A stretch of 24,088 nt of DNA from NCBI GenBank assembly GCA_046497275.1, contig JAWOFX010000149.1:1-24088 (forward strand), read 5' to 3'. Positions 2,695 to 7,600 of this stretch are shown here, piece by piece (position 1 is the stretch's first letter; each line of letters starts with the position of its first letter). This stretch comes from Promethearchaeia archaeon (GTDB lineage Archaea > Asgardarchaeota > Lokiarchaeia > Sigyniarchaeales > SOKP01). The notes under the pieces are model-generated. The model did not search any database, was not told where the DNA came from, and saw only the letters and a list, made by a program, of their open reading frames with translations. A program made the position numbers and the translations under genes.

Positions 2695-4026
2695 TTAGTC
2701 AGTAATACCATTTCCTGTGATACTGAATACTGCCTCTCCTTCTGGGAGATGAGGTGCGTCAACGATTTTTGCTACTCTTTGTTCTCCTTTCCCCTTTCTT
2801 AGATAAATACGGATCGTAGAACCATGAGCGATTATATTCCCACCAGCGGCTTGTAATGGATTGCCATAAAATACATCAGGTTTAGCTTGAACTTGATTTG
2901 TTACTACAATAGCTAAATCTGGGTAAATATCACATAATCGAAGTAAATCGTGCAGATGCTGATTAAGGATTTGTTGACGATTTGCGAGGGTCCCACGACC
3001 AATATATTCACTTCTAAAATGACCTATTAATGAATCAATTACAATGAGTTTTACATTTTTTTCTTTTATGATATTTACAGCTTCTTTAGCAAGTAAGATT
3101 TGGTGATCTGAATTATATGCTCGTCCAAACACTATATTTTTTAAAACCGTATTATAATCTAAATCAAGACCTTCTGCCATCTGAATTATTCTCTCAGGTC
3201 GAAAAGTACCTTCAGTGTCGATATAAAGAGCAGCACCTTCAATCCCTCCTTTTTCTTTAGGAAGTTGCACATTAACGCATAATTGATGCATTATTTGAGT
3301 TTTACCCGTACGAAATTCTCCAAAAAACTCAATCATTGACCCAGTTTCAACCCCTCCCGCAAGTAGATTATCTAATTCTTGACTTCCCGTAGTTATTCGT
3401 GCGATATTTTTCCGAGTTTCCCATAAAGTTTGGGCAGATTTAAACCCAACATTTAATTTCTTCATAGCTTGCTTTATGAGTTTCTCGGTCGTTTTATCTC
3501 CGAGTCCACTATCTTCTTTAATTATAGAAGGAGGAGTATATGCAATTGCTTCAAGACTATTAAAACCTGCTTTTATAAGTTTTCGTAGAGTCGCATCTCC
3601 TACTCCTGATAAATCCTTAACTTGTTCTATACATTCTTCCATGGTTCTATCATCCCCCCCATAAATTTCTATGTCTCCTTCATCATCTTCATCTTCGTCA
3701 TCGTCTTCCTCGTCATCGTCTTCCTCGTCTTCGAATTCCTCTTCCTCTCTCATTTCTTCAAAATCGTCATCTATCTCTTCATCATAATCTTCAAATTCTT
3801 CAAAATCTTCTCCATCCTCAATTTCATCATCTTCTAATTCTTCATTTGCTATTTCATTCTCTTTAGAATCTTCTTCTTCGTCAACTTGTGGAACTTGAGC
3901 ATATTTTAGATGGTCCTTATAGATTTGTCCTTTTACGTGATTTCGATCGCATTCTGGGCAATAATAAGGATCACCCATTTTAAAATCATCATTATTCATT
4001 TCTACTGCCTTAGCCAAATAAATCAC
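2695..4026 (-). CDS. radA: DNA repair and recombination protein RadA (Rad51/RadA family) with atypical N-terminal Cys2His2-like module and long acidic tract
   Basis: HhH domain ([27 protein letters not shown]), FxxA polymerisation motif (GFKSA), Walker [30 protein letters not shown], Walker [29 protein letters not shown]. The start codon is uncertain: GTG at 4026, or a downstream TTG/ATG. Confidence 0.97.
3695..3724. repeat. Exact 15-bp tandem duplication (tcgtcatcgtcttcc x2, partial third copy) inside the radA acidic tract
   Basis: Read directly at 3695-3709 and 3710-3724; encodes EEDDD twice on the minus strand. Confidence 0.85.
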
Positions 4027-4053
4027 TTAAAATTTAGTGTATTTTTTATACTT

Positions 4054-4164: not shown

Positions 4165-4527
4165 TTAAGAAATGCTTTTTAGCTGTTCTGCTACTTTCCG
4201 CATTTCAATGAAACATATATCCATACGCGCATCAATATTCAAACACACGGCTATTATTAAATCTGGTCCTGCATCCATCACCGCAAAATTGCCCTCGTCG
4301 CCTTGTAAAATACACACATCCAAAAGTCCTGATCTAAGCTCATTAAGAACCCTCTCAGCCACTGATAATATGGCAGCAGTCATCGCTGCAAGTTTAATTT
4401 CAGATATTCCTTCTTCCAATATGGAGTTTACAATTAATCCTTCTTGTGAAACTATTGCCGCAGATCGTACTCCATCAATATTATCTAAAAGACCTTGTAA
4501 TAGGTATTGAAATTGTTCTTCAGTCAT
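4165..4527 (-). CDS. Roadblock/LC7 (MglB/LAMTOR-like) domain protein
   Basis: 120 aa with IDGVRSAAIVSQEGLIVNS, LAAMTAAILSVAERVLNEL, ILQGDEGNFAVMDAGPDLIIAV and a C-terminal helix: the typical Roadblock alpha-beta-beta-alpha-beta-beta-beta-alpha pattern. Confidence 0.92.
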   Translation of the reverse strand: MTEEQFQYLLQGLLDNIDGVRSAAIVSQEGLIVNSILEEGISEIKLAAMTAAILSVAERVLNELRSGLLDVCILQGDEGNFAVMDAGPDLIIAVCLNIDARMDICFIEMRKVAEQLKSIS

Positions 4528-4720: not shown

Positions 4721-5956
4721 TTGAATATAGGGTTAAATCTTGAATATCATCCAAGATTAAAAGAAAGATTATTAACCAAAAATATAGAAAGAGTTAATCA
4801 GAATAAAGAGCATTGGCAAAAGCCATTTTTTACTGATACAAGCTCCTATTTGGATTTAGAGGAAATTAGAGAAATATCCTCGAAATTTATGAAGGAAGAG
4901 TTTAAAAATGTAATAGTTCTTGGAACAGGAGGTTCTATTCAAACATTTTTAGCATTAAGCCATTTATCGAAGAAACGAATTTTTCCCATAACGAGTTCAA
5001 GAGCTATTGAACTTAGAAATTGTCTAGAAAATACAAGTTCAAATGATTCTATCGTAATTCCCATTTCTAGGAGTGGAGAAACCTTGGATATAAATTCCAC
5101 AATAGGTTTCTTTATTGAAAAGGGATATAAATTCTTAGGTCTTTCATCGCGAGGGAAAATGAATGAATTGTTAAAAAAAGTATCCGCTCCAATTATGGAC
5201 GTACCTGATCTTTCTGGTCGATTTGCTGCCTCTATAACTAACGTGGCAATAGTTCCCGCTTACATCTCGGGTATTGATATTGACACTTTTTTAGAAGGAT
5301 TAAAACAAGGGTATGATGAATTTATGACTTTTCGCAACAATCTGAGTTTAGAATTGGCCAGTTTTATTTATCAATTATATATGAAAGGATATGAAGTGGT
5401 ATTTTCAATGCCATATTCAAAAAATCTTGAAGGAAGCATTGGATTATTCGTCCAAGAGATTTCAGAAAGTACTGGAAAAGAAGATAAAGGATTAATAGGG
5501 GCATATCAAGAATCTCCACTTAGTCAACATTCGGTTTTAGAGTATATATTGGGAGGGACTAAAGGTGCGGTTATCCCTGTAATTTTTACTTTAGAAAGTG
5601 AATTTGGAGATTTAACATTAAAATCTTCAATAGAATATATCAATGGAAAGTCTGCCCAAACGGTTATAAACTATCAAGCTGATGCAACTTTCCAGGCTAT
5701 GATTGATCAGGAAGTGCCATGTGCTAAAATAACGTTAAAAAATCCAAGTGAAAAAAATATCGGGAATTTGATTTCATTTATCCAATCAACAGTATATTAT
5801 TTATGCTTGCTTCTTGATGTAAATTGGTCAAACAATCCGAAAGTAAATATTGGGAAAAAAATCTGTAATAAGGCCCTGAAAGAAAATCTTTCTGAACAAA
5901 AAAGAAGGAAAAATCGTCAAGAATTAGCAGAAAAGAAATTTCACAGTTTTTATTAG
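4721..5956 (+). CDS. pgi: Glucose-6-phosphate isomerase (PGI superfamily, SIS fold)
   Basis: VLGTGGS, ISRSGET, SGRF, QEISESTGK (catalytic Glu), SQHS (catalytic His) and NPKVNIGK (catalytic Lys region). The TTG start is preceded by SD-like AGGTGA. Confidence 0.82.
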   Translation: MNIGLNLEYHPRLKERLLTKNIERVNQNKEHWQKPFFTDTSSYLDLEEIREISSKFMKEEFKNVIVLGTGGSIQTFLALSHLSKKRIFPITSSRAIELRNCLENTSSNDSIVIPISRSGETLDINSTIGFFIEKGYKFLGLSSRGKMNELLKKVSAPIMDVPDLSGRFAASITNVAIVPAYISGIDIDTFLEGLKQGYDEFMTFRNNLSLELASFIYQLYMKGYEVVFSMPYSKNLEGSIGLFVQEISESTGKEDKGLIGAYQESPLSQHSVLEYILGGTKGAVIPVIFTLESEFGDLTLKSSIEYINGKSAQTVINYQADATFQAMIDQEVPCAKITLKNPSEKNIGNLISFIQSTVYYLCLLLDVNWSNNPKVNIGKKICNKALKENLSEQKRRKNRQELAEKKFHSFY

Positions 5957-6007: not shown

Positions 6008-7429
6008 CTAAGCGATAAATGCATCATATAGGACATTTACAGCGTCTTTACAATCTTTTCTCTCAATAATAATAGTTATATTCAACTCTGAAGATCCTTG
6101 TGCTATTGCTCTCACATTTATTCCATTCTTCCCTAAAGTAGTGAAAACTCTTCCAGCAATTCCGGGAGTTTGCAACATACCAGCACCTATCACTGCGATT
6201 AATGAGATATCGTTATCAATTTTTATACTAAACCATTGTTTCCCAAACCAATCAGAATTTCGTAATAAAAAACTCACGGTCATTGAATCTTCTAAATCAA
6301 TTCCAAAGGTGATGTTATTTTCTGAAGAGCTTTGGGAAATAAATTTGATGTTTATATTATTATCACCTAATATATTAAACAATTTAGCAGCAGTCCCAGG
6401 AAGCGAAATCATCGTCCCGCTTTCAATAGTTACCATGGACAATCTATTTATTGATGCGATAGCCTTAATGACTTTATTTCCCACATTAACTTCTTTTGTG
6501 ATTGTTGTATAATCAGAGGCATTAGGGTTATTGAAAGGTCGAATTTCTGAAGGGATGTTTCTTTTTTCATTTACATCTAAACAAAGTGGATGTAAAACTT
6601 TAGAACCGAAAAATGCCAATTCTTTTGCTTCTAAATATGAAATATTTTTTAATAATGACGCTTTGCTGGAGATTTTAGGGTCGGCATTTAGAAAGCCCTC
6701 AACATCTTTCCAATAAATGACTTTACTGTTGAACTTAGGAGCCAAACAATACGCAATAACTGCAGCAGTTAAATCTGTACCCCCTCGACCGAGAGTTGTA
6801 ATTTTTTTATCTTTAGTCGATCCATAAAAACCAGTTACACACACTAAATCGCAATTATTTGAATTTATCAAAGGTTTTACCTTTTGATGTATTAATTCTT
6901 CCGATTCATCGAGTAATGGTAAAGCTCTTCCAAAATTATCATTAGTGAGTATAATTTCATCTGCTGAGATAAATTTTGATTTTATACCAATAGAGTTCAG
7001 ATATTTGGAAACTATTAAGGTACTTAATTTCTCTCCATATGAGATTATAAGATCTTGTATATCTAAGCTAGGACGTAATAATCGGACTACTCTTCCTAAT
7101 TGAGTCAGATCATTAATATTAGTCTCCAAAAAATTAAGTGTATCTTCATATTCAGGTTTTTCTTTTTCTATATTCTTATTTATGAATTTAAGATGAAGTT
7201 TTTTTATTTCTTCGATAATCGCTTTACATTCGGGTCCATCGCTGCAAGATTTATTATAAAACTCTATCAATTTATCGGTTATACCCTTAAATGCGGAAGT
7301 GACAATTATTAATTTTGTTTTTTTCAAATAATTCTTTAGAATCTTAGTTGTTTTCGAAAGTGATTTCGCATCTTGGAGACAAGAACCTCCAAATTTCATA
7401 ACTGTCAAATCGGTTTTATGTTCACTCAT
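6008..7429 (-). CDS. lysC: Aspartate kinase with two C-terminal ACT domains
   Basis: KFGGS, IISYGEKLS, TTLGRGGTDLTAA, WKDVEGFLNADP, SYLEAKELAFFGSKVLHP; ACT repeats ...PGTAAKLFNILGDNNINI and ...PGIAGRVFTTLGKNGINV. The start is placed at ATG 7429 (MSEHKTDLTVMKFGG) rather than 7498, because the extra 23 codons resemble AT-rich promoter DNA. Confidence 0.93.
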   Translation of the reverse strand: MSEHKTDLTVMKFGGSCLQDAKSLSKTTKILKNYLKKTKLIIVTSAFKGITDKLIEFYNKSCSDGPECKAIIEEIKKLHLKFINKNIEKEKPEYEDTLNFLETNINDLTQLGRVVRLLRPSLDIQDLIISYGEKLSTLIVSKYLNSIGIKSKFISADEIILTNDNFGRALPLLDESEELIHQKVKPLINSNNCDLVCVTGFYGSTKDKKITTLGRGGTDLTAAVIAYCLAPKFNSKVIYWKDVEGFLNADPKISSKASLLKNISYLEAKELAFFGSKVLHPLCLDVNEKRNIPSEIRPFNNPNASDYTTITKEVNVGNKVIKAIASINRLSMVTIESGTMISLPGTAAKLFNILGDNNINIKFISQSSSENNITFGIDLEDSMTVSFLLRNSDWFGKQWFSIKIDNDISLIAVIGAGMLQTPGIAGRVFTTLGKNGINVRAIAQGSSELNITIIIERKDCKDAVNVLYDAFIA

Positions 7430-7600
7430 TTTAATCAATGTAAATGGTAAAGTAATCTTGATATAGTAAAATAATTCAAAATTATAAGAGTTTATCATTT
7501 ATGTTTCTGAAAAATAGGATGTGATTGTTAAAGTGATTCCAAATATATTGAAATACCCTTTTTTAAAATCAAAATTAGAAAAATAAGGATATTAGAGTAT

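Follow-up and report, generated by a model that had tools for sequence, protein, structure and literature searches.

The acidic tails of the SSB C-tip, T4 gp32, T7 gp2.5 and HMGB1 fold back on the DNA-binding surface of their own protein and recruit partners; these tails are disordered and often carry a terminal or embedded aromatic residue. Partner recruitment by such an acidic tail has been described for the SSB C-tip and RecO (PMC13489159). Among RecA-family recombinases, the nearest precedent for autoinhibition is the flexible, negatively charged C-terminal tail of bacterial RecA (E. coli, K. pneumoniae), which makes contact with basic residues in the ATPase core and has an inhibitory effect on DNA binding, filament formation and strand exchange (PMC13076628). 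In homologous recombination, the disordered, aromatic-punctuated polypeptide DSS1 (Sem1) is described as a small acidic DNA mimic that acts with BRCA2 in RAD51 loading (PMC11329725, PMC7641332). The reconstructed Rad51/Dmc1 ancestor carries an acidic, low-complexity N-terminal region of 33 aa (bioRxiv 10.1101/2025.02.19.639135), and two RadA clades are recognised in some Asgard lineages (PMC12722695). Here we analysed a window of 24,088 nucleotides, positions 1 to 24,088 of contig JAWOFX010000149.1 from a Promethearchaeia archaeon (GCA_046497275.1), in which a RadA paralogue gene (2695..4017, minus strand) encodes a zinc-finger head and a long polyacidic arm ahead of an intact recombinase. The extension is not described in either of the last two papers cited, both on Asgard RadA phylogeny, and a literature search on the acidic N-terminal region of Asgard RadA found nothing on it.

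Compared with the RecA C-tail, which is short, C-terminal and without a zinc-finger head, the arm reported here is N-terminal, 72-85 residues long and holds 53 acidic residues; the two are not homologous, and the role of the arm is one that we infer. DSS1 is a protein in its own right, bound to the OB folds of BRCA2, whereas the RadA arm has no sequence-family match to DSS1; no counterpart of BRCA2 is known from the genome studied here, in which none was sought. The SSB, gp32, gp2.5 and HMGB1 tails are C-terminal, much shorter (except for the ~30-residue HMGB1 tail) and sit on non-enzymatic binders, whereas the arm is an internal linker between two DNA-related modules. Closer in position are the short N-terminal tails of other RadA and Rad51 proteins (P. 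furiosus RadA, 1pzn; yeast Rad51 residues 1-66; archaeal tails of the M-x-K-K-K type), which lie directly upstream of the helix-hairpin-helix (HhH) domain, are disordered and often run from basic to acidic, but none of those listed nears 53 acidic residues in 72 or has a zinc finger, and their mutual homology is not established. The tracts of nucleoplasmin, Nap1 and FACT likewise consist of long Asp/Glu runs with interspersed aromatics, although here the context is a recombinase and the RadA protein has no chaperone fold or family match. Judged by these comparisons, the arm falls outside any described family and is best likened to the charged regulatory tails on RecA-family recombinases.

The longest reading frame of the gene runs from a GTG at 4026 down to 2695 on the minus strand (443 codons). 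The TTG at 4017 is nevertheless the likely start codon in place of this GTG, because it reads M-A-K-A-V-E, like the MAKA start conserved in most orthologues, and because a TATA-box-like TATAAAAAAT lies ~24-33 nt upstream of it (4041..4050, minus strand). Taken as the promoter, this box suggests a leaderless or near-leaderless transcript beginning at the extension. Counted from the TTG, the protein has 440 residues (stop codon 2695-2697) and the acidic tract occupies residues 46-117; counted from the GTG, the tract is 49-120. In the TTG numbering the layout comprises a zinc-finger head (~10-40), a linker (41-125), the HhH domain (126-190), an F-K-S-A motif (192-195) and the ATPase core (202-440). 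The whole protein has a net charge of ~-54 and a pI of 4.4, and the core alone has a pI of 6.7.

By profile and by motif the protein reads as a bona fide RadA. The NCBIfam RadA equivalog NF003301 matched at 454.8 bits (cut-off 259; 1.4e-136) from profile position 5 to 315 of 316 (311/316 positions), spanning residues 134-443 in GTG numbering. TIGR02236 scored 433.4 bits (cut-off 361; 4.9e-130), and Pfam recognised both Rad51 (PF08423, 1.8e-94, residues 205-443) and HHH_5. The N-terminal HhH domain (3448..3642, minus strand) aligns with 1pzn, with 2bke and with the N-terminal domain of human RAD51 (1b22). It is followed on the same strand by the F-K-S-A polymerisation (FxxA) motif of the interdomain linker (3433..3444) and by the RecA-fold ATPase core (2698..3414), with Walker A (GEFRTGKT, 3298-3321), Walker B, L1 and L2 intact. 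In an alignment of 98 orthologues, the basis of all column, linker and mean pairwise-identity statistics given here, GEFRTGKT, the LIVIDS-type Walker B, the L1/L2 segments (...RQQ; NQVQ...GGN..AHG) and GFKSA are invariant or nearly so (G191, F192 and A195 are invariant), and the core motifs match 1pzn (P. furiosus) and 2bke (S. solfataricus) residue for residue. The RadA body is therefore, as read from its motifs, predicted to be fully canonical and filament-competent.

Because the NF003301 match begins at 134, the acidic tract lies outside the RadA fold, in an N-terminal extension of ~125 residues. A sequence-only reading of the same DNA had placed it inside RadA; instead it precedes a complete recombinase. 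That reading had also described 53 Asp/Glu among the 72 residues at aa 49-120, punctuated by F/Y/I. On both points it was right: a recount of the translation returned 53/72, and the acidic-aromatic string that it quoted is present. It had overlooked the place of the tract as a linker between a zinc-finger head and the core, as well as an amphipathic motif inside it.

The tract itself (3667..3882, minus strand) contains 31 Glu and 22 Asp (73.6% acidic) with 1 Lys and 1 Arg. At the Asp+Glu frequency of 12.2% over all long frames of the genome (assembly of 3.85 Mb, 98.9% complete, ~30% GC), the binomial tail for such a composition is ~5e-33. No other 72-residue window is as acidic among the genome's stop-to-stop frames of 100 codons or more, of which only 6 attain 36/72 Asp/Glu. 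The DNA of the tract consists of GAA/GAT/GAC-type codons repeated imperfectly with periods of 6, 9, 15 and 42. Two plus-strand open reading frames antisense to the tract, 3476-3664 (62 aa) and 3622-3837 (71 aa), are Phe/Ile/Val-rich; they mirror the GAA/GAT codons and are almost certainly artefacts rather than genes.

Assigned by eye, the next most acidic frames include a uS2-like ribosomal protein gene with a Lys-rich and acidic N-terminal extension (G000:C33:46972-47838, plus strand), an L31e-like gene with an acidic N-terminal extension (C122:7902-8372, plus strand), a Spt5/NusG-like gene with an acidic C-tail (C73:12281-13081, minus strand) and a gene for a 758-aa protein of no assigned family with a poly-Glu run (C161:240-2516, minus strand). 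In this lineage, nucleic-acid-binding proteins may habitually carry acidic extensions.

When 5.8 billion proteins were searched with a word index, more than 100 homologues (403-457 residues) matched the query over its full length; they derive from NCBI, JGI, ENA and Logan assemblies and bear the name RadA of Promethearchaeota/Lokiarchaeota and other Asgard metagenome-assembled genomes (MAGs). All of them share the three parts head, linker and core, and in the 98 aligned orthologues head and core lie in one frame without exception. Pairs of orthologues are on average 72% identical over the head, 31% over the linker and 86% over the core. The linker has no invariant column, a length of 60-108 residues (mean 74, SD 8.7), 35-68% Asp/Glu, 0-6 Lys/Arg and a net charge of -19 to -63. 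Since head and core always stay in frame across this hypervariable length, all net linker indels must be multiples of three. The nearest relatives, with cores 91-94% identical, have tracts that are ~50% identical with 10-20 gapped positions; the absence of the tract from close relatives, which the sequence-only reading had named as a refuting observation, is not what we found, as these come from independent assemblies and are differently spelled but equally acidic. A pattern search of genome contigs with the extension as query was swamped by low-complexity acidic words and confirmed one locus (L044, a Promethearchaeota MAG). Taken together, the tract is very probably a real, translated and compositionally conserved disordered arm.

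The composition of the linker points to what is being kept. Pooled over the orthologues it is 21% D, 31% E, 8.5% N, 3.2% K and 0.4% R. Relative to the folded core, Gly, Pro, Ser and Thr are all markedly reduced; Phe (3.1%) and Tyr (2.0%) occur about as often as they do there, and Ile/Leu are frequent. In a genome of ~30% GC the change from Glu to Lys is a single, AT-favoured transition, and the scarcity of Lys therefore points to selection on charge. What selection appears to maintain is the composition of the linker and not its sequence: probably a negative charge, the avoidance of positive charge, and exposed hydrophobic or aromatic side chains. Such a make-up is unlike that of a generic flexible spacer and unlike a product of AT-biased drift.

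Within the tract lies a semi-conserved motif with the family consensus Y-DDE-x-E-L-I-E-A-F-x-E-L-E, the first position being aromatic. Its key columns are hydrophobic in 88-92% and Glu in 94-97% of the orthologues, and the i, i+4, i+7 spacing fits an amphipathic helix. The strict form occurs in 59/98 orthologues; the window protein has a degenerate copy of 12 residues (3751..3786, minus strand), identified from the family column statistics. We built AlphaFold2 (AF2) monomer models of the window protein, using the 98-sequence alignment, and of orthologue P0065, which has the consensus motif. In the window protein the predicted local confidence (pLDDT) is <50 for residues 43-121 and >85 for most of RadA, and this sets off the whole disordered linker (3643..3897, minus strand) between the head and the RadA N-terminal domain. 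The P0065 model behaves in the same way, with linker pLDDT <50 and a weak helix on the motif alone. This low-confidence helix covers residues 83-91 in the window protein and 57-68 in P0065. With low predicted order, extreme Asp/Glu content and a composition conserved without sequence, the segment has the features of the descriptive class of intrinsically disordered polyacidic tracts. Two further patterns were considered and rejected: FxxA, which would point to BRC-like mimicry, occurs in 4/98 linkers and cannot serve as a general explanation, and [LIVMA]-F-[DE]-E occurs in 23/98; both are absent from the linker of the window protein.

Ahead of the linker, the C2H2-like zinc-finger head (C-x2-C-x3-H-x8-H; 3898..3966, minus strand) is defined by residues Y18, C20, C23, H27, G30, Y33 and H36, invariant in the orthologues, and by the AF2 model, in which a beta-hairpin and a helix with pLDDT ~77-82 form a classical zinc-finger shape. 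Pfam searched with the head alone gave only a sub-threshold match to zf-C2H2_jaz (E 0.18). A stand-alone 97-aa protein in the same genome (L005:1510-1803, plus strand, = G000:C150) starts with the same finger, at 41% identity over 37 residues. It has a basic, Lys-rich tail, which rules out that the zinc-finger module is always paired with an acidic one.

In the phylum (201 genomes), matches that run over the full length from residues 1-5 are confined to the Lokiarchaeial (Promethearchaeota) family to which the window belongs, where the long form is found in 33/41 genomes. Most long-form genomes also hold a canonical RadA (331-346 residues, 64-67% identity); the window genome has such a canonical copy of 326 residues (C46) and a RadB-like gene (C69). 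It further encodes a third RadA-like paralogue (L003:1216-2355, minus strand, = G000:C13) of 379 aa and ~40% identity. The layout of this paralogue is reversed, with a C-terminal acidic, Asn-rich linker followed by a second HhH module.

In a maximum-likelihood tree built on RadA cores, the zinc-finger/acidic clade is monophyletic (100/99) and the short paralogues form a clade of their own (100/99). The sister of the zinc-finger/acidic clade (93/90) is a clade from one genus of the same family, in which a Lys-rich head is followed by an acidic tract of ~45 residues without a zinc finger (L018 = G040:C17; L043 = G144:C12). The sister family (L007-L010) has a single RadA with a Lys-rich head of the M-A-K-K-K type and then an acidic segment. 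Because both sister clade and sister family pair a Lys-rich head with an acidic tract, the combination of cationic head and acidic tract outlives the type of head, and it seems from these sequences to predate the zinc finger. Within the zinc-finger clade one member on a long branch, L019 (G180:C21), has a shorter linker of mixed charge (Lys/Glu/Asp) and represents a natural "relaxed" variant.

The extensions found in the rest of the phylum are either short and acidic-aromatic or of mixed Lys/Glu character. We sampled more widely with the 150 best cluster representatives from 1.84 billion proteins, in 122 of which the HhH start could be placed; the median RadA extension in these is ~13 residues, and many of the tails read M-x-K-K-K and then turn acidic. 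P. furiosus RadA (1pzn) has 27 residues ahead of the aligned region, M. voltae and S. solfataricus have almost none, and in yeast Rad51 the N-terminal domain is immediately preceded by an acidic stretch, E-D-E-A-Y-D-E-A-A-L. On this comparison the tract reads as a charged N-terminal tail, of the kind that is widespread but little studied in RadA/Rad51 proteins, expanded to an extreme.

As to function, we tentatively favour a reading in which the arm is a cis-acting, nucleic-acid-mimicking polyanion that regulates DNA binding and filament nucleation, and we put its probability at roughly 45%. The disordered, polyanionic arm would tether the zinc-finger head to a canonical RadA and compete with DNA for the protein's own DNA-binding surfaces, namely the zinc-finger head, the HhH domain and the L1/L2 loops. 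Such competition would damp binding to double-stranded DNA (dsDNA) and spontaneous filament nucleation, until single-stranded DNA (ssDNA), Mg2+ or a partner displaced the arm and relieved the inhibition. Its logic would be that of the RecA C-tail and of the acidic SSB, T4 gp32, T7 gp2.5 and HMGB1 tails. In the filament, ~53 negative charges per protomer could form an anionic brush that disfavours duplex binding and bundling, and the acidic-aromatic patches may also bind RPA, histones or other partners that are basic or have OB folds.

The sequence-only reading had suggested a DNA mimic or a histone-chaperone-like arm. Part of what this presupposes is borne out: the arm is real, translated and predicted to be disordered, it is anionic and aromatic-punctuated across the family, it sits on an intact recombinase, and the genome encodes five histone-fold proteins and an RPA70-like protein (G000:C34, around 35132-35521). 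No support was obtained for homology to chaperones or DSS1, for confident docking of the arm or for charge compensation by the core, and the sequence evidence does not separate autoinhibition from SSB/RPA displacement or histone handling. Several of our observations weigh against regulation in cis. In the AF2 monomer models of the two orthologues, judged without a contact map, neither the arm nor the motif docks confidently on the core. The mean net charge of the core is -2.1 in the acidic-arm clade vs -1.7 in the short paralogues, so that no compensating basic charge is seen there; the zinc-finger head of the window protein is roughly neutral, and 53 negative charges far exceed any intramolecular partner. 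The shorter, mixed-charge linker of the divergent orthologue L019 means that extreme acidity is not obligatory, and the acidic extensions on further nucleic-acid-binding proteins of the genome could make the pattern partly a lineage habit.

Some of the same observations would suit a passive spacer, solubility or protein-homeostasis element, one that distances the head, prevents bundling or aggregation, or raises the protein level without any specific binding. The sequence of the linker is not conserved and its length is loosely constrained, the tandem codon repeats with periods of 15 and 42 suggest growth by slippage, disorder is predicted in both modelled orthologues, L019 manages with mixed charge, and other proteins of the genome carry acidic extensions. 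In yeast, moreover, the first 66 residues of Rad51, which are disordered, mainly affect the protein level and checkpoint phosphorylation (PMC7470947). A generic flexible spacer would, however, be expected to be enriched in G/S/P/T, or in N/K in an AT-rich genome; what we observed is a depletion of these, with K/R nearly excluded, F/Y/I/L and the motif retained, and the most acidic segment of the genome as the outcome. We consider a purely passive role unlikely.

Rather unlikely, too, is a built-in mediator of the DSS1 kind, in which the arm would imitate ssDNA in trans, bind to the OB folds of RPA and loosen RPA from ssDNA, so that RadA loads itself and needs no separate mediator. The Asp/Glu runs with F/Y/I/L, with aromatics at folded-core frequency, have the look of OB-fold-binding acidic tails; the conserved amphipathic acidic motif resembles a docking peptide, the genome encodes an RPA70-like protein, and the part described for DSS1 with BRCA2 in RAD51 loading offers a model. 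Against this, hmmscan assigned the tract to no Pfam-A family at E<=10, DSS1/Sem1 (DSS1_SEM1, PF05160) included, with the proviso that weak matches may be lost to HMMER's composition filters. The window protein has the motif in degenerate form, and it is strict in just 59 of the 98 orthologues; a search for it among the genome's other replication and repair proteins gave a single match, which was spurious. A broader version, which we regard as quite unlikely, would have a cis-tethered DSS1-like arm prying RPA or histones off DNA, with the head-and-arm device ancestral to the order and possibly related to the acidic N-termini of eukaryotic Rad51/Dmc1.

A role in histone handling appears improbable. 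The arm would here capture archaeal histones that come off the duplex while homology search and strand invasion proceed, as the tracts of nucleoplasmin, Nap1 and FACT do. The genome has five histone-fold genes, acidic tracts with aromatic anchors are typical of histone-binding elements, and the arms of a filament would present a dense anionic brush. Yet Pfam detected no histone-chaperone fold or family in the protein, whose folded modules in the AF2 model are the zinc-finger head and RadA; short acidic or mixed RadA N-terminal tails are common in archaea and do not obviously track the possession of histones; and any polyanion binds histones in vitro, which makes such binding weakly discriminating. 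The mediator, spacer and histone-handling explanations are not mutually exclusive with the cis-polyanion model.

An artefact, either a low-complexity insert misassembled into the gene or an upstream frame that goes untranslated with the true start at the Met before the HhH domain, would account for the Met at residue 126, where canonical RadAs begin, and for a tract made of GAA/GAT-type repeats, but is ruled out as far as sequence alone allows by a frame that stays open for ~125 codons in a 30% GC genome, by the invariant head in frame with the core in 98/98 orthologues from many independent assemblies and sources, and by a TATA-like box that lies upstream of the extension and not of the internal Met.

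The gene lies outside any DNA-repair operon and seems to be driven by its own promoter. Its neighbours are a Roadblock/LC7 protein gene (4165-4527, minus strand; Pfam 6.6e-13), two genes on the plus strand whose products of 842 aa (52-2580) and 411 aa (4721-5956) have no Pfam match, and an aspartokinase gene (6008-7498).

Asgard RadA is the closest prokaryotic relative of eukaryotic Rad51/Dmc1. In eukaryotes, separate mediators keep the recombinases off duplex DNA and load them onto RPA-coated ssDNA, partly by means of acidic DNA mimics. The arm is a well-documented sequence feature with an inferred role. An Asgard recombinase with its own conserved polyanionic arm and a DNA-type zinc finger would offer a simple system for charge-based self-regulation or self-loading of a Rad51-type filament, and it would show that long acidic disordered regions of the eukaryotic style were already in use on core DNA-repair enzymes in Asgard archaea.

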